Of a DNA stretch of 64,000 bases, positions 177-63,111 are shown in pieces; position 1 is the first letter of the stretch, and the number at the start of each line of letters is the position of its first letter. The position numbers were made by a program, and so were the translations under genes. This DNA comes from Patescibacteria group bacterium (GTDB lineage Bacteria; Patescibacteriota; Patescibacteriia; UBA1558; S5-K13): assembly GCA_028692545.1 (NCBI GenBank), contig JAQUXC010000001.1, positions 1,365 through 65,364 of the forward strand, written 5' to 3'. The notes under the pieces are model-generated. The model was not told the DNA's origin. It searched no databases and saw only the letters and a program-made list of their open reading frames with translations.

Positions 177-224
177 TGTTCCACCTGTCTGCGCGTAGCC
201 GCTTCAGCGAAGGCAGGTGGAACA
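177..224. promoter_or_regulatory. parS-like site split by 32-nt GC-rich insert (TGTTCCAC-[insert]-GTGGAACA); also forms a 15-bp-stem hairpin/terminator after the upstream ORF
   Basis: Half-sites identical to the three intact copies downstream; the insert ctgtctgcgcgtagccgcttcagcgaaggcag sits between them. Confidence 0.5.
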
Positions 225-343
225 TTTTATATATATTTTGGCTCATTTGAGCCATTTTTTTGTACATTTAATAAAATAATAGTTACAATATTGGCTATTT
301 TATGTATTTTTTGATATTTTAAGAATATTTATATGAGTCAAAT

Positions 344-359
344 TGTTCCACGTGGAACA
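344..359. promoter_or_regulatory. parS (ParB binding site) TGTTCCACGTGGAACA
   Basis: Perfect 16-bp palindrome, one mismatch from B. subtilis parS TGTTCCACGTGAAACA. Confidence 0.75.
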
Positions 360-463
360 ATCTATGTAATTTTTTAGTAAATTAAATAAAAGATAGTTCT
401 ATGTCATTTTATATTATAAATTTTTATTAATTATATATTTATAGTCTTTTATAGTATTTAAAA

Positions 464-479
464 TGTTCCACGTGGAACA
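464..479. promoter_or_regulatory. parS (ParB binding site) TGTTCCACGTGGAACA
   Basis: Identical 16-mer, ~120 bp from previous copy. Confidence 0.75.
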
Positions 480-588
480 ATTTAGCTAAACTTGGCTTAT
501 TTTATGTCTTTTTTATATTTAACAAAAAAATAGTTTTAAGTTTTTTATTTATTATTTAGTATTTTGAGGTTATTTATATAAATCAAAT

Positions 589-604
589 TGTTCCACGTGG
601 AACA
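589..604. promoter_or_regulatory. parS (ParB binding site) TGTTCCACGTGGAACA
   Basis: Identical 16-mer, ~125 bp from previous copy. Confidence 0.75.
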
Positions 605-662
605 ATTTAGTATATTATTTGTTTATTAGAGTTATTTTTTTTAGAAATAAAAAACTCCCCTA

Positions 663-725
663 AGATCAAAACATTATGTATTTTATACCTGGGGAGTTTC
701 ACTCCCCATTTTTAGGCCTATTACC
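663..725 (+). terminator. Alternative-hairpin (attenuator-like) element ending in intrinsic terminator
   Basis: AACTCCCC (663-670), GGGGAGTT (701-708), ACTCCCC (711-717) then ATTTTT; the middle segment can pair with either flank. Confidence 0.3.
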
Positions 726-1087
726 AAGGGTATTTTATCTATATTAAATAAGATACTTTTAGTAATTTCCATTTTCATTCTTGCTCTGAGGAGCATTGTA
801 TTTTTATATTTTTCTAAACAATCCTTATTATTTTTATACTTTTTTATTAGATCTCATGCTTTTTGCACAGGATTCTAAATTTATAAAATTTTATTTTTAT
901 TTTTGTAATAAAGGCTGTCTAGAATTGTTAATGTTCTACTATAATATAAGTATATCATAAGTTTTCAAAAAAGTCAATCTCATATTTTGGCTTATTCAAG
1001 CCAAAAATATAAATTTTGTTTTATTATTGCTTTATATTAAATAATATATTTATACATTTTTGTAAAGTTATGCACATATAAATACAC

Positions 1088-1150
1088 TTATCAACAGACT
1101 TATCCACAGATTTAACATTCTTATACCCAAGAATTAACATGTTATCCACA
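1088..1150 (+). promoter_or_regulatory. DnaA-box cluster (TTATCAACA, TTATCCACA x2, TTATACCCA), putative oriC element
   Basis: Consensus DnaA 9-mers at 1088-1096, 1100-1108, 1142-1150, all same orientation, in AT-rich non-coding DNA next to the parS cluster. Confidence 0.55.
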
Positions 1151-6282: not shown

Positions 6283-6555
6283 AAAAATATATAAAGTATT
6301 TATTTTTATTTTTTAGGGTTATCGGTTTATACACACTTAATAGATATATGTAAGTTCTTATGAAAATTTAAATTATATTATGTATTATGAAATAATAAGT
6401 TATTTTAAAAAAAATAAAATATATACTAATAAAATAAATTTTAATGCTTAAAATATTTTTTGATGATGATTAGTATTACTTGACTTAATTTATAAAATAT
6501 GGTTATATTTACTATTGTTCTTTTTTATTTACAAAACAATCCAAGGAGGATTAAA

Positions 6556-8835
6556 ATGAAAACACTCTATATCTTAATCATCGCTCTGTTGATAAGTATA
6601 GCAATAAGTGCCGAAACAACTTATTTTAATAATTGCTCTTTTAGGGCAATTGATACGGTTGACGGTGAATTTTTTTGGGGTTTATCAATGAATGAATTGA
6701 AGGCTCAAAAATTTGTATTGCAAGATGGAAATATTAGTATTGTACAAGAGGTTAATTTACCAGACACTCTTAGCATAGATCAATTCCCAGAAATTATTGC
6801 AATTTCTGATGAATTTTATGGGGGTGGGTTTGTATTAAGGGCTGATTGTACAGTAGTTTTTTGGTTGTCACAACTTCCAGATAATCATTTTAGACTACAT
6901 TACAAAAGTGGACTAAAATCTATAAAAAAATATACCAACAATCAAATCGCCCTCTTTTACACTAGGGAAGATACGGGAGGCGGTAGTTCCATTATCCTAG
7001 AAATTGAAAATGGAGATGAAATTGAGGGTATGTACAGTGGTGACGGTACAGGTATTTGTTTTGGTGGAAATCAAAATATGACTGTAATAGGGGGTACTAG
7101 GCTTGGAGGTTATAATGGTTATGGTGATAATTTACCATGGGCATTTTTAACTGTACATCGAACTAGTGCATATAATTATTCCTACTTTTTTGACAATTAT
7201 TATGATATTACCACAGCAGTATTCGTTGATGGTGATAATATCTTTGCTATTATAGAAACCAATCCAGATGAATCCGGTTTTATAACCAGAAGTTTGGTCA
7301 AAAAGCCTTATTCTGGACAACCAATTAATATTTGTACTGATATAGTGCAATATAGTAATCACCCTTACCTATTTGAAAAAATTGGAGATTGGATATACCT
7401 CGGACAACTTAATGATTTGAAGAGGTATAATATCAATAGTGAGATTATGCAATCCGTAAATATCTTGTTTGATGACAATTTTATCAGATCCTCTACAAGA
7501 TTTCAGGATAAGATATTAATAGCATTAGACAATGGATTGGTTTTGTATCAACCATCAAACTCAATGCATCTAATAAACTTTTATCCACATAGAAATCCTA
7601 TAGAAGTGGATAATTGCACAGCAGATACACTTTATGTGTATCCAGGTCAAATATTTCAATACAATGGATCTATGAATCCAATAGAAGAAAATTTTTGGCC
7701 TGGGAGTGTAATTGGATTAGATTCAATAACGACTCTTGATGTCGGATTGGAGATAATAAATTTTCATTGGGATTGCTCATTGTTGGATAATGAAGGATTG
7801 TTATATATTGATAATCTTCAGATGGGTTGGGTTAGTAATGGTTATTTTGGTATTGATGATTGTGGTTTGCTTGTAATGAATTTACAAAATCACATACCTG
7901 AGGGTGAATGTGGGCATATTATTACCAGTGTAAATATTACAAATAATACTCCACTTGGAATAATTGAAGAATCTTGCATAGATAATAAAACAATTATTTC
8001 CAACAATGGAGTTATTGGTGATATCGATGGATCTGGAGGAGTAGATCAAAATGATGCAATAATTGGTTTGGGACAGTGGATTAATCAGAATATTTTGCAG
8101 ACCGGTTATAATCCAAACGGTCAGATTAATATAATGAGGCAATCAGTCCTTGCTCCACATCCCAGTACAGCAAATATATGGGCAATAAATGGATATTTAC
8201 ATAATCCAGAGGATTCATTTTTTGCTAATTTGGGAATAGGGAGCCTTTATGAAGTTGAAAATTGGGTTCCACCCAATTATATAAATAACCAAGGTCTCAT
8301 AATTATAGATACTAATGATAATTTTGTCAGTATATTTTGGCAGAACTTTGATAATAGTTTTGGTGGCCAAGATATTTTGATTACAAATAACAAGGTTATG
8401 CGATGGGAATCAGAAAAAGGATTAGAGCCAATTATTTTCGAAAGAAATAAAAATCAACTAATCCAATTTCAAATTCCTATAAATGCTAAGTTATTATCAT
8501 TATCAACAAAACAAATCAATTATAGTTCATCTGGAAGTAACGATGATCTTATTGATTTAGATAAGGTACTGAACAATGTCTACCCCAACCCCTTCAATTC
8601 TCAGACTTCAATTAGTTTTAATTTGTCAAAAACAGGCAATGTACAAATTGAGGTTTATAATATTAGAGGGCAATTGGTGAAGACACTATTTGCTGGCCAA
8701 AAATATGCTGGTAACCACCAGATTATTTGGAATGGTACTGATAATAAGGGTAATTTAGTTACAGGTGGAATTTATTTCTACAAACTTAAATTAGATTCTT
8801 ATGTCAATACTAAGAAAATAGTGTTGATAAAATAA
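6556..8835 (+). CDS. Large secreted protein with T9SS-type C-terminal sorting domain (Por_Secre_tail)
   Basis: RBS AAGGAGG 6 nt upstream of ATG at 6556; signal peptide MKTLYILIIALLISIAISA; C-terminal ~80 aa VYPNPF...IEVYNIRGQLV...GIYFYKLKL matches T9SS CTD pattern. Confidence 0.7.
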   Translation: MKTLYILIIALLISIAISAETTYFNNCSFRAIDTVDGEFFWGLSMNELKAQKFVLQDGNISIVQEVNLPDTLSIDQFPEIIAISDEFYGGGFVLRADCTVVFWLSQLPDNHFRLHYKSGLKSIKKYTNNQIALFYTREDTGGGSSIILEIENGDEIEGMYSGDGTGICFGGNQNMTVIGGTRLGGYNGYGDNLPWAFLTVHRTSAYNYSYFFDNYYDITTAVFVDGDNIFAIIETNPDESGFITRSLVKKPYSGQPINICTDIVQYSNHPYLFEKIGDWIYLGQLNDLKRYNINSEIMQSVNILFDDNFIRSSTRFQDKILIALDNGLVLYQPSNSMHLINFYPHRNPIEVDNCTADTLYVYPGQIFQYNGSMNPIEENFWPGSVIGLDSITTLDVGLEIINFHWDCSLLDNEGLLYIDNLQMGWVSNGYFGIDDCGLLVMNLQNHIPEGECGHIITSVNITNNTPLGIIEESCIDNKTIISNNGVIGDIDGSGGVDQNDAIIGLGQWINQNILQTGYNPNGQINIMRQSVLAPHPSTANIWAINGYLHNPEDSFFANLGIGSLYEVENWVPPNYINNQGLIIIDTNDNFVSIFWQNFDNSFGGQDILITNNKVMRWESEKGLEPIIFERNKNQLIQFQIPINAKLLSLSTKQINYSSSGSNDDLIDLDKVLNNVYPNPFNSQTSISFNLSKTGNVQIEVYNIRGQLVKTLFAGQKYAGNHQIIWNGTDNKGNLVTGGIYFYKLKLDSYVNTKKIVLIK

Positions 8836-18188: not shown

Positions 18189-19678
<1,490 letters not shown>

Positions 19679-19918
19679 TTGGAATATTTTTGTGAAAAAT
19701 ATTCAAAAACTTATAAGTGAAAAAATTTCCTTATCTTTAGCTTTCTGCCACAATTTAATTGTCAAGTTGCGAAATTTTTATTATACAAATACTTTATTGC
19801 GTAAAAAAAATTAATATAGAATAAAAATATCTATATAGTAAAATAATATTATACCTTTTCAAGAAACATGTCAATACTTATTATTGATTTTTTTGTTGAT
19901 AAGTGAGAATATTAAATT

Positions 19919-27133: not shown

Positions 27134-27682
27134 AGTTTTTTATTATTAATAATGTTTATAATAATAGCATTATTATTGTATTTTGTCAACATAAATTTTT
27201 TTATTTTATAATTATAGTATTATAAATATTTAATATTTTAAACTTTGGATTAAAGTTTATTATTTATGTGTTTTAAGCTCTTGACTTATTTTTTATTTTC
27301 TATATAATTATTTACAGTTATCCACAAGTAATAATTAACAAAAAAACTTGTATCAAATAGAAAAAAATATAACAAACAAATATAGATTGAGCGGATTTTA
27401 ATACTCTAATTTTATTAGTTATAGAACCGCTAGATAGCGGTTTTTTTGAACCTTAAAAATGTAATCAATAACTAGTAGTAATATCAGGCTTTCTTATGAA
27501 GATTTATCTGGTAGAAATATTTTTTTCTCAAACTGGAGAAATCTTTTGTAGAATCTCTCGCACCTTGGTGCTACTTACTACTAATTATTGCTTATATTAT
27601 TGTGAGCAAAAATTAGCTCATTGAAAATTTATTTTAAGGTATACTGAAACAAAGAAATATTTTATGTTTCAGTGATTGCAAT

Positions 27683-30806
<3,124 letters not shown>

Positions 30807-30898
30807 GAAACATTAAGTGTTTGTTTGAAAGAAAGTATAACTTAAAATAAATTAAAATCATTAGATAGCTTGATGTGAATCACAGTTCACGTCAGGAA

Positions 30899-31007
30899 TT
30901 TGGTGATTTTAGCGGTGGGGAAACACCCGGTCCCATTTCGAACCCGGCAGTTAAGCTCACTTGCGCCGATGATATTGCATTTTTGTGAGAAAGTAGGTAG
31001 TTGCCAA
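30899..31007 (+). rRNA. rrf: 5S ribosomal RNA
   Basis: GGTCCCATTTCGAACCCGGCAGTTAAGC...GCGCCGATGATA core. Confidence 0.85.
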
Positions 31008-31012
31008 TTATA

Positions 31013-35611: not shown

Positions 35612-36216
35612 AAGCTAAAGAAACAAAAAAATAGCTTGAGAAAGAAAGAACTTTAAAAAACTACATAAAAGCCATCTTAATAAACCAAGTGTTTAAAAAG
35701 ATGGTGCAAATAAGCTGATGTTAAGAAATCCTTCAATGCTTGTAAGGGTTTCTAACTAGCTTGTTCGTAGGATGAGGAGATTCCAAAAATGGAGTTAAAC
35801 ACTGATCGAGTTTCGCGAACAAACTTGATAACAGTGTCCTTTCAAGTAAGCCTTGTGTCTTCCCGAATTCTTATAAAAAGAGTCGAAGATCACTGAAAGA
35901 AAGCCACATCACCCGAAATCTTTTTAAGGAGATCGGCTGGGAAGTAAGGAATTAACCACTCTTTGCTCTCAGGAATTTCCTTACAAAGAGTCCCGGGTAA
36001 TAATTCGGGACTTTGTGTTAAAAAATAGACCTTCGAGGTTTTTGAACCTCGAAGGTCTGGGGAAAAATAGTTCTTTGAAAATTCATGTTATGTTATTCAC
36101 CGCTTTTTCTGATTATTGGATTAGTCATAAGAAGCGGTGAATAACCAGTATCTCTATTGTCTCTAACCACTTACTATTTGAAAGAGTAGAAGTTAAGGTG
36201 AGGCAAGGGAGGAGAT
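35612..36216 (+). ncRNA. ~600-nt structured leader/possible ncRNA preceding ORF 36217
   Basis: GC-elevated, multiple stable hairpins (e.g. GACCTTCGAGG...CCTCGAAGGTC at 36040-36070), no long ORF; downstream of consensus promoter. Confidence 0.35.
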
Positions 36217-36915
36217 ATGAAAAATATTTATTCAACAGTACTTTTTCTGGACAGTCGGTCCAGAGAAATATTTCCGGAGTTTGGGTCTATGACTCAAACT
36301 CTGGAGGGGTTAATTTTTCGACTGGGGATTAAATCTCCGGTTGAGGCTAGGGATTTTTTCCCTAACATCCGGGATGGAGCATTCATTTGTCCTTTCCCAA
36401 CTTTTATACCCCTAGAGGGGTATAATGCCCAGTCTTCGGCCGGGTTTGTAAGGATCGTTGGAGTTAGTTACTCCAACGCAACTCTTCTCGGGGGAATTTT
36501 TTCCGCCGGGAAGGGGTTATTCAAAACAAAGGAGTCCCTTCAGGGACTCCTTCTACCCCCGGAAACCTTATTCCGGTGGGCTGAAACCCATAAAAATCTT
36601 AATTGCAATACGGCAGATGCCGTGTTGGAAGGCTTGTATGCTCGTCAAGGGCATATGGGTCTTTATATAGTGGAGGGTCAGAGCAATTATGCTCGGGCCC
36701 TATACATCCAGCCTCCCAAGGGCTGGAGAGGAGAAATAATTACTTTTCCCTGGGAACACCGGACTGATATATTTGGTCCTGTTCCAACCGAGGTCACTCA
36801 GGAGGACCTACAACCCTCCGAGTCTCCAGACCTCACCTCCTCATCAGAACAAGAATGTCCTCCCGAGGAAGAGGTTTTGGAATTCGAAGTTCCAGAGATC
36901 CTCGTTGAGGATTAA
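36217..36915 (+). CDS. Hypothetical Pro/Gly-rich protein with acidic C-terminal tail (232 aa)
   Basis: SD GGGAGGAG 6 nt upstream; GC and amino-acid composition very different from neighbours. Confidence 0.55.
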   Translation: MKNIYSTVLFLDSRSREIFPEFGSMTQTLEGLIFRLGIKSPVEARDFFPNIRDGAFICPFPTFIPLEGYNAQSSAGFVRIVGVSYSNATLLGGIFSAGKGLFKTKESLQGLLLPPETLFRWAETHKNLNCNTADAVLEGLYARQGHMGLYIVEGQSNYARALYIQPPKGWRGEIITFPWEHRTDIFGPVPTEVTQEDLQPSESPDLTSSSEQECPPEEEVLEFEVPEILVED

Positions 36916-37052
36916 TTCCGGAAAAGTCAGTTTGTAAATTCTGACTTAAAACAAAAATTTATATGCGGTTATGGGAAGCGTGTTTGGTTACCGCTTCCCT
37001 CCTTTAATCAAATTGTTATTGAAAAATAATGGTTTGATATTGAGGATTATAA

Positions 37053-37087
37053 AAATCAACCTCCGAGGTTTTTAAACCTCGGAGGTT
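37053..37087 (+). repeat. Hairpin copy 2 (TCAACCTCCGAGG-TTTTTAAA-CCTCGGAGGTTGA), homologous to hairpin at 36040-36070
   Basis: Same loop, stem differs by compensatory T:A to C:G change. Confidence 0.6.
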
Positions 37088-37325
37088 GATAGATAGCTCT
37101 TTAACAAAATCTTAATAATATTTATTTGGCGCAGAACTTATTATTTATTATGTTCGCGCAAATAAATGATAATCCTATTTTATTTTAGGATAGTTTTATT
37201 ATGCAGAACTTATAGGACTTTTATATCTAATAATTTTTATACTTGGTCGTATAATTATTGTTGAATACAAAGGGCTTCTGCGTCGAAACAAATATTATTA
37301 AGAAAAAATTATCCATGGAGGAAAA

Positions 37326-37577
37326 ATGAAAAATCTATATCGTCAGGAGTGGGTGGAATCCAATCGCGACATGGGATGTCAGTGTGACGGATATTCTCTT
37401 CATTTAAGCAAAGAGGATGCTGCGGAATTTATTGGGGCATATTGGGACAATATGCCCGACAATGCCCCACAGACCTATTCACGCCCAGAAGGCGTGCCAC
37501 AACTTATTGAGGTTGATGAAGAAATCTATACCAAGATTTCAAAATCAAAATTTGGCGTTCGATTTTGGGAGCGCTAA
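37326..37577 (+). CDS. Hypothetical protein (83 aa)
   Basis: SD GGAGGA 7 nt upstream. Confidence 0.5.
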   Translation: MKNLYRQEWVESNRDMGCQCDGYSLHLSKEDAAEFIGAYWDNMPDNAPQTYSRPEGVPQLIEVDEEIYTKISKSKFGVRFWER

Positions 37578-37595
37578 AAATCAAAAGGAGGAAAA

Positions 37596-37886
37596 ATGCA
37601 AAGAATTTTCTTTTTTCTGGGAGAGTTGAAGTTTCAGCTTTCTCAAGTCCCACTCTTAGTGACATACGTTATCATTACTATGATAGCGGTGCCAATGTCA
37701 TTTCCCCCTTGCATGTTGGTTCAGGGGATTTCTCTTACTTCAATTGGAGTTGAGGAATGGCAAAAAATTTTGTCATTTTTTATTCAATTTGAAGTTTCTT
37801 GTTTATTTTTACTAATACTCTGGCTTGTTTGGAGTATAGTAAAGACAATTAAATCTCTCAAACAGATGAATTCTGCGAGAGAGTGA
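37596..37886 (+). CDS. Hypothetical small membrane protein (96 aa, 2-3 TM)
   Basis: SD AAGGAGG 6 nt upstream; hydrophobic segments. Confidence 0.5.
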   Translation: MQRIFFFLGELKFQLSQVPLLVTYVIITMIAVPMSFPPCMLVQGISLTSIGVEEWQKILSFFIQFEVSCLFLLILWLVWSIVKTIKSLKQMNSARE

Positions 37887-37912
37887 ATTTACAAGAACTA
37901 AAAGGAGGAAAG

Positions 37913-38026
37913 ATGAAATCAATTAAAAGCTCTGATAATACAATCAGGGCTTTTTACTTTAATAAATTTTTAATTGACAATATCATTGTTATATGTTATA
38001 ATTTTATAGTTCAATTAGTCCTTTAA
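37913..38026 (+). CDS. Possible small ORF (37 aa)
   Basis: SD AAGGAGG 6 nt upstream of ATG; below ORF-track cutoff. Confidence 0.3.
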   Translation: MKSIKSSDNTIRAFYFNKFLIDNIIVICYNFIVQLVL

Positions 38027-38132
38027 TAATTGAAAAGTGACGGCCGATGTCACTATAAATAAAGATTGGGGAAAATCCTACCAGAAAGGGTAAAAAATAC
38101 GCCCGCGACTTTGGGTAAAAAAGGAGGATACA

Positions 38133-38906
38133 ATGAAAGGTATCCAAAATAGTCAGAAATTCTCGTTAGAGAAATTTCAATCCCATAACTTAAAGGTTTC
38201 GATGGAACAAATAATTGGCCTTAATAATGGTCAATGTGTCGCAATATTCTATCATAAACCTTACTACTCACGGCCTAGTTACAATGTAGCCCAGTCTGAT
38301 CAAGATATTCATCAACTTTATGAGGGTCAGACTACCCAACACACGGGAACAGTAAGAAACGAAGTTTTGGTAATAAAAGAGATTGCCAAAAAGATTGTGT
38401 TGACTGAAGACAAGATATATTGCGGTTCTATAACTGGACTCGCGACGCTTATTGATGTATTTCAGAAGCAGTCCGGGGAGTTTTTTATTGAGGATAATCT
38501 GTGGACCAGTTGGAACAATTCTCAAGAATGGAATGAATCAATAAAGGATTTTTCCTTTAGAAGATTTGAGGTGGGGTCTGGTACGGAACTAGACAAGTAT
38601 AACCAAATGGGCATAGAAAAAATGGAGGAACGGAAAAATTTTTTCCAAAAGACTATGTCTGATGCTATTTCATTGGGAATATCCAAAGATAGAGCTCTTC
38701 AAATCGTGACGAATAATAATGTCACGGTTTTAGAAGCAGTTACTCAATTGGTATTCAAGGATGTTCCTAAAAAGGACGCTCGGAAAATAGCAAATAAAGC
38801 AAGTGCATGGAGCTATGCACAAGTGATTCTTGGGTATGATCCCAAGATCATAACTGGAAAATTCGAAAATTTAATTTCTGCGTGCCGAGAGTACGCAAAT
38901 TTATAA
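38133..38906 (+). CDS. Hypothetical protein (257 aa) with possible UBA-like helical segment
   Basis: SD AAGGAGG 6 nt upstream; segment LGISKDRALQIVTNNNVTVLEAVTQLV resembles UBA/EF-Ts N-terminal-type helical bundle (weak). Confidence 0.5.
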   Translation: MKGIQNSQKFSLEKFQSHNLKVSMEQIIGLNNGQCVAIFYHKPYYSRPSYNVAQSDQDIHQLYEGQTTQHTGTVRNEVLVIKEIAKKIVLTEDKIYCGSITGLATLIDVFQKQSGEFFIEDNLWTSWNNSQEWNESIKDFSFRRFEVGSGTELDKYNQMGIEKMEERKNFFQKTMSDAISLGISKDRALQIVTNNNVTVLEAVTQLVFKDVPKKDARKIANKASAWSYAQVILGYDPKIITGKFENLISACREYANL

Positions 38907-39062
38907 TAATATTATTCTGGGGATATGTATCACCTATACAATATTGATACACTTCCCCTTTTTTATTCCAAAAAATTTTTAATTTATAATTAAAATTGCC
39001 TTTCAAATTATAATTTGATATATTTGTATATGATTTACTTAATTTATTATTAATATTTTTTT

Positions 39063-61115: not shown

Positions 61116-62333
61116 ATGTTTTCAAGAGAACGTTTAATGGCAATGGCTAGGTGCCTAATTTGGGGTCTTAAAACAGCAAGAAAAGCAGACTTCAAACGAG
61201 GAGACGTAGTTGTCGTTGGGTTTTGCAGGCTTTATATTGAGCTTGCAGCAAATGTTCAGAGCTTACTTATTAAGGAAGGAATTCATGTTATCCCTGAAAT
61301 GATGATGACACCAGAAATGGAACTGAATCTATATTCTTTGGGTGATAATGATCAACTTCAATTCCTTCCGCAGTGGCTCCTGAATAAGCAAGAAAATCTT
61401 AATGGCATGATCATGATTCTGGCCTATGAAAATTTGAATCATCTCAAGGATTTGGAACCAACAAAAATGGCACTCGCTCAGAAAAGCAAAAAACCACTTC
61501 TTGATATTCGCAATCAACGTGAAAGGAGTGGTGATTTTGGATGGACTTTATGCGTGATGCCAACTGAGGCACTTGCTGAAGAGGCTGGAATGAGCCTTGA
61601 AGAATATGAGGAAGAAGTTGCCAAAATTTGTCACCTTGATGATGATCCGGTTGTTTTTTGGAAAAATCTTCACAATGAGGCAATGGAAGTAAAAAGATAT
61701 CTTAATTCCTTGGATGTTGATTATTTCCATGTGGTCTCAGATTCGGGCAAAACAGATTTGAAGGTCTATCCTGGAGAATCCAGACAATGGATTGGTGTGT
61801 CCGGTCATAATATTCCCAGCTTCGAAATTTATACATCACCTGATTGCTATAAAACCGAAGGCACATTCTTTGCCAATAATACAATGTTTAAAGATGGTAA
61901 TCGTGTGACAGATGTTAACCTTGAATTCAAGGATGGTAGAGTGGTAAGCTGTTCTGCTAAAGAAGGTGAAGAATTCCTAAAAAAACAGGTCAGCATGGAT
62001 GATACCTCCGATATGCTTGGTGAGTTTTCTCTTACTGATGCAAATGCCTCATCTATAACGCGATTTATGGCGAGTACCTTGTATGATGAGAATGTCGGTG
62101 GAGAGTTTGGTAACTGCCATGTGGCGATTGGTAGAGGTTTTGGTGATTCATATTGCGGAAACAAAGAATGGACCCCAGACCTTATGAAGCAAATAGGAAT
62201 CAATTCATCAGCTCAGCACTGGGATTTGATTTCAACCGAGAAAAAAATCGTCACTGCTCATCTCAAAGATGGGCATGAGATTGTTATTTACAAAGATGGT
62301 AGTTTCATTATTCCGGAACCGGTTGGATGTTAA
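61116..62333 (+). CDS. Aminopeptidase, M29 (AmpS/PepS) family
   Basis: SD AAGGAGG upstream; conserved blocks GEFSLTDANAS...LYDENVGGEFGNCHVAIG typical of M29. Confidence 0.6.
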   Translation: MFSRERLMAMARCLIWGLKTARKADFKRGDVVVVGFCRLYIELAANVQSLLIKEGIHVIPEMMMTPEMELNLYSLGDNDQLQFLPQWLLNKQENLNGMIMILAYENLNHLKDLEPTKMALAQKSKKPLLDIRNQRERSGDFGWTLCVMPTEALAEEAGMSLEEYEEEVAKICHLDDDPVVFWKNLHNEAMEVKRYLNSLDVDYFHVVSDSGKTDLKVYPGESRQWIGVSGHNIPSFEIYTSPDCYKTEGTFFANNTMFKDGNRVTDVNLEFKDGRVVSCSAKEGEEFLKKQVSMDDTSDMLGEFSLTDANASSITRFMASTLYDENVGGEFGNCHVAIGRGFGDSYCGNKEWTPDLMKQIGINSSAQHWDLISTEKKIVTAHLKDGHEIVIYKDGSFIIPEPVGC

Positions 62334-62382
62334 ATTGCAATATTTCATTATCGAATCGGTGGCCCTTTGGGTCGCCGATTTT

Positions 62383-62440
62383 TTATTACTTGTTGACAAC
62401 TTAGTTGACAACTTTTTGATATGGGTGTATACTAAAGTTG
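62383..62440 (+). promoter_or_regulatory. Promoter (TTGACA-17-TATACT) overlapped by two GTTGACAAC palindromes (putative repressor operators)
   Basis: acttGTTGACAACttaGTTGACAAC; third related site GTTGTAAACAAT at 62437-62448. Confidence 0.5.
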
Positions 62441-62460
62441 TAAACAATAAATTTTGTGAT

Positions 62461-63111
62461 ATGAACATAAAAGAATTAATTTTAAAAAACATAAACAAAA
62501 ATGGTAAAGTAGCTACATCAGAGATTACTTCAATTACTGGTTTTTCTCGAGCTTATATAAATCGTTTTATTTCTGAACTTGTGAGTGAAAAAAAAATTAT
62601 GCAAATTGGCAAAGCAAATCAAGCACATTATATAAAATATAATAAAAATATCCCAAAAGAAATTAAGAAATTAGAAAAAAATTATAATAAAAATATAATT
62701 GATAAAATTTTGGATATATTTGATATACCACTTATGGGAACTGCTGATTGTGGGGAGCCACTTAGTATCGCAGATGATTATATAGAAGATTATATGCAAT
62801 TATCATCCAAATTTATAAAAGGAAAAAAAGAAGATTATTTTTTTGTGCGTGCAAAGGGAGATAGTATGAATAAGGAAAATATAAAAGATTTAAATTACGT
62901 ACTTATAAAAAAATGTGATAGCTTTTTAGGAAATGGAGAAAATGTATTAGCTGTTATAAATGGACTTGGAACCATAAAAAAGTTTTATAAGAAAAAAGAT
63001 ACAATTGTGTTGTCTCCAAGCTCTAGCAACAAAAAACACAAACCAATATTACTCCATAGAGATGATGAAGTATTTGTTTGTGGTAAAGTAGACCATGTTT
63101 TCGATTTTTAA
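62461..63111 (+). CDS. LexA-like repressor: N-terminal winged-helix plus C-terminal S24 peptidase domain
   Basis: S24 motif RAKGDSMN and downstream VLAVINGLGTIKKF; N-terminal HTH region; start at internal ATG 62461. Confidence 0.65.
   Translation: MNIKELILKNINKNGKVATSEITSITGFSRAYINRFISELVSEKKIMQIGKANQAHYIKYNKNIPKEIKKLEKNYNKNIIDKILDIFDIPLMGTADCGEPLSIADDYIEDYMQLSSKFIKGKKEDYFFVRAKGDSMNKENIKDLNYVLIKKCDSFLGNGENVLAVINGLGTIKKFYKKKDTIVLSPSSSNKKHKPILLHRDDEVFVCGKVDHVFDF

Follow-up and report, generated by a model that had tools for sequence, protein, structure and literature searches.

A predicted parS centromere beside a putative replication origin in an uncultivated Patescibacteria genome

INTRODUCTION

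That parS sites lie beside the replication origin is what the ParABS field expects, and the principle is textbook. In Pseudomonas aeruginosa, parS1-parS4 form the cluster nearest to oriC; proper segregation of the chromosome requires one of these four sites, and a single one, whichever it is, suffices. The genome carries further parS-like sites as well as half-sites bound by ParB (PMC4368675, PMC7022226). The 16-mer TGTTCCACGTGGAACA considered here is identical to the experimentally tested parS2 and parS3 of that organism and to sites of P. putida (PMC4368675, PMC7022226). An origin can lie apart from dnaA, as in Escherichia coli, and at oriC of Bacillus subtilis, with its basal unwinding system, tandem co-oriented DnaA boxes adjoin AT-rich DNA (PMC8287927).

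Here we describe a locus at the left end of a 64,000-nt stretch of DNA from a Patescibacteria group bacterium (contig JAQUXC010000001.1, positions 1,365 to 65,364, forward strand), hereafter called the window. It resembles the P. aeruginosa system in carrying the same 16-mer as parS2 and parS3 and in having a handful of sites clustered near oriC, which here is a probable oriC. It differs in that the sites are 120-125 bp apart within one intergenic region and 464 bp from a set of DnaA boxes, in that no degenerate site occurs in the other 63 kb, and in that parAB is not nearby. Since such a layout is expected near a replication origin, the arrangement of parS sites and DnaA boxes is as such fairly ordinary. 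Two features set the locus apart, namely the very tight packing of parS sites and DnaA boxes in a gene-free region, which is common to other loci of the Patescibacteria type, and the lack of dnaA on the side that is visible. No description of parS arrays at Patescibacteria origins was found in the literature searched.

RESULTS

The gene-free region and its flanks

The non-coding region 175-1369 (1,195 bp, 22% GC) holds both the parS copies and the DnaA boxes. No credible open reading frame was found in it, small ones included, and an Rfam search of positions 1-1500 at a permissive threshold matched zero families. Its flanks are the following:

1-174, + strand: 3' half of a PTPS/QueD-family gene; the full gene (about 115 aa) continues past the left window end
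1370-1927, + strand: HD-domain hydrolase gene (PF01966), which opens a + strand gene run; a flank, outside the element

The QueD-like fragment comprises the last 57 codons of its gene, with a TAA stop at 172-174. Alone it has no Pfam match; its homologues (65-71% identity, 111-116 aa) carry PF01242 (PTPS). On the other side, the + strand genes downstream of the DnaA-box cluster form a putative HD-NUDIX-PNPOx operon.

When genome contigs were scanned with the HD protein, all homologues retrieved had at most 61% identity and none had parS nearby, and the contigs of the QueD-like homologues were non-syntenic and without parS; no close relative for a conservation check of 175-1369 was found among these HD and QueD homologue loci. 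An exact-protein look-up with the HD, NUDIX and 778-aa proteins of the window retrieved short Logan contigs only and nothing upstream of the window. One Logan contig (L001) starts at window position 581, 8 bp before the third parS. The 57-aa upstream fragment gave no match in a word-index search. Nor does the protein collection contain the QueD-like protein in full length, as would be the case if the assemblies broke off inside its gene or a little upstream of it.

Three intact parS sites in tandem units

The intact sites and the repeat units to which they belong are:

298-620, + strand: three tandem units of about 120-125 bp, with a parS at the end of each (repeat-family comparison)
344-359, no strand: parS 1, within the extended palindrome ATTGTTCCACGTGGAACAAT
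464-479, no strand: parS 2, exact TGTTCCACGTGGAACA
589-604, no strand: parS 3, within the 24-bp palindrome AAATTGTTCCACGTGGAACAATTT

The first-pass annotation had placed TGTTCCACGTGGAACA at 344, 464 and 589. An exact scan of the 64 kb recovered these three copies, and no further match appeared even when three mismatches were allowed (chance expectation 0.02 and 0.13). The 16-mer differs at one position from the B. subtilis consensus TGTTNCACGTGAAACA, as had also been stated, and all three copies are exact matches to a validated variant of the 16-bp palindrome. All four reverse-complement half-sites of the window fall inside the parS cluster. Each of the four copies in the window, a split one included, is flanked by A-W...W-T, and the 484 metagenomic parS sites among the matches listed have A at -2, T at +2 and A/T at -1/+1 in every GC class. 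A Noc-type site was considered and rejected, as the sequence differs from the Noc site. The identification of the TGTTCCACGTGGAACA copies as parS is strongly supported at the level of sequence, by which the locus belongs to the class of chromosomal ParABS centromeres, with the copies as predicted ParB sites. We regard the centromere reading of the locus as highly probable.

The starts of the intact sites are 120 and 125 bp apart. The spacing of about 120 bp that had been given for four sites thus describes two of the three intervals, but not the third, since 167 bp separate the start of the split copy from that of the first intact parS; nor is it general, as other arrays, among the matches listed, are spaced at 40-200 bp. 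A 120-bp phasing as a functional rule was rejected on that ground. The repeated flanks that had been noted are present: 291-312 and 493-514 are 82% identical, and the 78-nt cores around the parS sites, at the spacing of 120 and 125 bp, are 62-81% identical (100/62/81%). Since the units share this identity and each ends in a parS, the array arose by tandem duplication, and its spacing reflects no more than two such events.

The split copy and the hairpins around the array

Three hairpin-forming features border the intact sites:

177-224, + strand: split parS, consisting of TGTTCCAC (177-184), a 32-bp GC-rich insert (185-216) and GTGGAACA (217-224)
239-261, + strand: second hairpin, TGGCTCATTTGAGCCA, with a T7 run; terminator-like (terminator scan)
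656-713, no strand: overlapping CTCCCC/GGGGAG hairpins, preceded by an A-run and followed by a T-run, closing the right side of the array

The copy at 177-224 had been counted as a fourth parS. The copy itself is real, but its half-sites lie 32 bp apart and it therefore cannot be a canonical ParB dimer site; we did not count it as parS. Its insert is unique in the window. The RNA of 160-245 folds into a long hairpin (-38 kcal/mol, z = -7.75), the base of which is formed by the two parS half-sites. This hairpin starts 3 nt past the stop codon; TTTTATATATATTTT comes after it, with a T-run from 225, so that 177-240 presents a stable GC-rich stem-loop and a U-run directly after a stop codon. With the hairpin and T-run in this position, the copy looks like a terminator. 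It is most likely not a working parS and is a probable intrinsic terminator of the upstream queD-like gene; in the most economical reading, a palindromic insert would have entered the dyad of a one-time parS and turned it into a transcription terminator of that gene.

The terminator scan also returned a + strand terminator at 690-713 (8-pair stem, 5 GC pairs, TTTTT tail), and the structure at 656-713 is possibly bidirectional. The three intact parS sites are thus bracketed by predicted terminators, at 177-261 on the left and at 656-713 on the right, which may insulate the partition complex from transcription.

A second kind of palindrome recurs in the region:

988-1003, no strand: palindrome TGGCTTATTCAAGCCA, belonging to the enriched TGGCT(T/C)ATT motif set

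The motif TGGCT(T/C)ATT occurs at 239-254, 292-300, 493-501, 988-1003 and 1282-1290, the last of these on the minus strand, and three of the five window copies of TGGCTTATT lie inside the intergenic region, compared with 0.09 expected. The set includes two palindromes of the type TGGCT-N6-AGCCA; one of them is the hairpin at 239-261, which is 86% identical to 982-1003. From its enrichment, the motif may be a candidate site of another DNA-binding protein.

A promoter-like site (TTGACT, 17-nt spacer, TATACT, with TG) was observed on the minus strand at 977-949. Downstream of it lies a stretch (645-945, minus strand) that is more stably folded than shuffled sequences (z = -4.6), although it contains DNA palindromes that may account for this, and that ends at the alternative CTCCCC/GGGGAG hairpins of 656-713. 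This stretch has no Rfam match and no relatives were found for it; judged by these signals, it could contain a gene for a small RNA or a small protein.

The DnaA-box cluster and the AT-rich DNA beside it

Past the array, the following features were found:

1068-1150, + strand: five DnaA boxes clustered within 83 bp, all in one orientation
1068, + strand: DnaA box TTATGCACA
1088, + strand: DnaA box TTATCAACA
1100 and 1142, + strand: DnaA box TTATCCACA
1121, + strand: DnaA box TTATACCCA
1151-1369, no strand: AT-rich stretch (10-24% GC per 50 bp), candidate unwinding region and promoter of the HD gene

The cluster begins 464 bp past the last parS, and the co-orientation for which it had been singled out extends to all five boxes; two boxes show no mismatch, two show a single mismatch and the fifth shows two. 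Their phasing is 12/20-21 bp, with those at 1100-1150 forming a 22-bp tandem repeat, and the extended box TTATCCACAGATTT occurs twice, at 1100-1113 and 1142-1155. This is the sole cluster of at least three DnaA boxes within the 64-kb window, and at least four boxes within 90 bp were found in none of 300 Markov simulations of 64 kb (0/300). A DnaA-box cluster as expected of an oriC is thus present.

The adjoining segment 1151-1300 lies at the 99.5th percentile for low duplex stability, but many intergenic regions of the genome are equally AT-rich, a point against the oriC reading. An extended -10 element (TGT-TATAAT, 1295-1303), read from the sequence as the putative HD gene promoter, has the DnaA boxes 150-230 bp upstream of it. 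In its tandem co-oriented boxes adjoining AT-rich DNA, the locus resembles the B. subtilis oriC and basal unwinding system, from which it differs in that dnaA is not adjacent. In DNA of 20% GC almost any sequence satisfies the DnaA-trio pattern of that system ((NAN){3,} within 16 bp of a box; PMC8287927), so that it does not discriminate and a match to it carries no weight.

Replication strand, missing genes and chromosomal setting

GC skew in the window is dominated by the coding strand, with 66% of the coding bases on the + strand, and coding-strand and strand-independent effects were therefore separated. The strand-independent skew is +0.09 over the whole window and +0.10, +0.08 and +0.08 by thirds. 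Uniformly positive, it implies that the whole window belongs to one replichore, with the + strand leading. The cumulative GC skew, to which the first-pass annotation had looked for a decision, has its minimum at the left window edge (the window covers the right side of the locus). Such a skew is consistent with an origin at that edge or farther left and does not pin its position.

None of dnaA, dnaN, parA, parB, recF, gyrA and gyrB was found in the 64-kb window by motif scan or tblastn (all E>0.1), which bears out the lack of the first four that had been reported. Adjacency of dnaA and dnaN, a common feature of origins that is not obligatory, is thus not seen in the window, where the left neighbour is the queD-like gene. 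If oriC lies here, it would be away from dnaA on the visible side, as in origins of the E. coli type; to our knowledge, E. coli has no ParABS and no parS.

The contig carries 16S, 23S and 5S rRNA genes, nine tRNA genes and genes for rplS, rpsO, pnp, tyrS and a class A PBP, and parAB is absent from the window. Its proteins are filed at NCBI under Patescibacteria group bacterium; MAGs encode the proteins MDD3283975.1, MDD4304122.1 and MDD4695153.1, and reads are deposited as SRR22315502. With rRNA, tRNAs and core genes on the same contig, a plasmid or phage origin is excluded, and the chromosomal assignment made at the outset stands.

Several other features of the window were recorded. The 16S rRNA gene (18189-19679, minus) is unlinked from the 23S-5S genes (27672-31009, plus), from which 8 kb of protein and tRNA genes separate it, and the 23S match covers 3,136 nt where the model has 2,925 positions, corresponding to an insertion of about 200 nt. 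At 36000-39000 the GC content is 33-39%, compared with about 28% for the genome; the ORFs 36217-36915 and 38133-38906 in this stretch have no Pfam match, about 1.2 kb without long ORFs separates them, and the stretch may be foreign DNA. The 778-aa protein encoded at 6499-8835 has Por_Secre_tail (type IX secretion sorting) and FlgD_ig domains and is followed by an ECF-type sigma factor gene, and 62269-63111 encodes a LexA-like protein with an N-terminal HTH-type region and a Peptidase_S24 domain.

Other loci with the same parS

A metagenome scan for two sites of the TGTTCCACGTGGAACA type 95-120 bp apart retrieved at least 120 contigs. Among the matches listed, the arrays of GC-rich contigs lie mostly directly upstream of parA or parA-parB, and those of low-GC contigs lie beside gyrA, the recF/gyrB junction (L104), gidA, tadA-dnaX, parA or parB. 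Arrays placed upstream of parA or parA-parB, or beside dnaA, behave as ParB sites would and not as dispersed repeats.

The closest counterparts come from three contigs (L021, L129 and L130) whose DnaA is named Candidatus Moranbacteria, with the order rnpA, parS array, four DnaA boxes, dnaA, dnaN, and from L109, in which 19 parS lie between rnpA and dnaA-dnaN with DnaA boxes alongside. These loci share with the window the same parS in AT-rich repeats directly beside DnaA boxes, including TTATCCACAGATTT, which is the Moranbacteria box nearest to the array (L021, 13540) and which also occurs in the unrelated, dnaA-linked origin region of L104 (4662). They differ in being flanked by rnpA and dnaA-dnaN and in having at least 7 to 19 sites, whereas the window has three (and one split) sites, queD-like and HD flanks, and boxes reversed relative to the array. 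This comparison gives the strongest support for an origin at the locus, by analogy with a Moranbacteria parS array and DnaA boxes upstream of dnaA. Together with the uniformly positive skew it favours the origin-proximal position proposed at first pass, but the origin itself is not thereby pinned, with one side visible.

Among the matches listed, L046 is the other locus with split copies; it has two, identical to each other, with a 42-nt insert of 74% GC, and also nested palindromes of repeated half-sites. A 692-aa ORF of this contig (L046:1261-3339, minus; Pfam Wzy_C, E = 3e-8) stays open across eight full parS, the two split parS with their 42-nt GC-rich hairpins and the nested half-site palindromes. 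In it the palindromes are translated as recurring peptides, namely NVPRPPRVDEQPSRVEAGGTF (twice), KCSTWNI, MFHVEH and NVPRGT. Judged by the reading frame, palindromic elements that carry parS seem to have inserted in frame into a gene for a membrane protein.

Many metagenome contigs were also seen to start or end inside parS arrays (L021, L030, L037, L026, L060, L100, L114 and L131-L136). Most Moranbacteria dnaA contigs stop 300-575 bp upstream of dnaA, and L129 has a scaffold gap inside its parS array. It seems that such arrays regularly break short-read assemblies at the origins of the genomes concerned.

DISCUSSION

We read 175-1369 as a chromosomal centromere directly beside a probable oriC, an interpretation that we favour with moderate confidence; the region of the cluster at 1068-1150 is, to a similar degree, the probable site of that oriC. 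In the mechanism that we propose, the three parS sites would serve as loading points for ParB dimers, which as CTP-dependent clamps would spread into the neighbouring DNA, and the resulting partition complex would serve ParA and SMC loading. DnaA would oligomerise on the phased boxes and open the adjacent AT-rich DNA, so that newly replicated origins would be caught at once for segregation. The array would be shielded from transcription by the hairpin of the split parS and the second hairpin with its T-run on the left, and by the pair of hairpins and T-runs at 656-713 on the right. The split copy, as a former parS with a GC-rich palindromic insert in its dyad, would now act as a terminator and no longer as a ParB site.

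The centromere may be real and the DnaA boxes nevertheless serve another purpose, either in a DnaA-controlled promoter region of the HD-NUDIX-PNPOx genes or as a cluster that titrates DnaA, with oriC itself kilobases to the left, beside dnaA. DnaA-box clusters do occur away from origins, as the DnaA-box clusters of B. subtilis and datA of E. coli. The boxes lie just upstream of the extended -10 promoter, as would suit a DnaA-regulated gene, both dnaA and dnaN are absent from the window, the DnaA boxes of other Patescibacteria-type loci adjoin dnaA, and the skew places the origin only at or left of the window edge. On the other hand, the boxes are co-oriented and phased at two helical turns in a gene-free region of 1.2 kb, 464 bp from the centromere, and the same pairing of parS with DnaA boxes is found at dnaA-linked origins; moreover, an origin separated from dnaA has precedent in E. 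coli (PMC8287927). We regard this alternative as possible and clearly the less probable one.

A bolder form of our own reading goes further than a centromere beside oriC, and we put it forward as rather doubtful. It takes the locus as an origin-plus-centromere module detached from dnaA-dnaN and set among unrelated housekeeping genes, with the parS palindromes as expandable hairpin elements. If this were true, parS palindromes would duplicate in tandem and gain GC-rich inserts at the dyad that turn them into terminators, as at 177-224 and in two copies of L046, and they could spread in frame into coding genes, as in L046. Rickettsia palindromic elements are in-frame palindromic insertions. The parS-bearing palindromes of L046 resemble them in being in frame, and the split copy of the window resembles them as a palindrome grown from its centre; it differs in that the window has one such copy, which is non-coding and shows no sign of mobility.

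It is very unlikely that the palindromes are not ParB sites at all, being instead a selfish or structural repeat (REP-, MITE- or RPE-like) or an operator bound by some other dimeric regulator. The split copy of the window, like the nested and split copies of L046, indicates that such palindromes can grow and multiply, those of L046 stand in frame inside a Wzy_C-like ORF, and the terminator scan flags parS 2 and parS 3 as weak terminator-like hairpins. Against this, the 16-mer agrees with a validated parS at 16 of 16 positions and is limited to one cluster in 64 kb, and the same arrays, among the matches listed, stand mostly upstream of parA or parA-parB in GC-rich contigs and beside dnaA in low-GC ones. 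A partition site of a plasmid, a phage-plasmid or an integrated element is scarcely credible, for although metagenome arrays directly upstream of parA or parA-parB are common and may include plasmids, here the contig bears the rRNA, tRNA and core genes listed above, no parAB, rep or integrase gene lies beside the array, and the skew is uniform across 64 kb.

Under the favoured reading of a centromere beside a probable oriC, the locus provides a concrete and testable candidate for both elements in an uncultivated Patescibacteria genome. Along with L109 and the Moranbacteria locus, it indicates that close packing of parS arrays and DnaA boxes is a recurrent feature of these small AT-rich genomes. 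The assembly breaks linked to such arrays matter for the closing of these genomes and for estimates of replication rate, which need the position of the origin.
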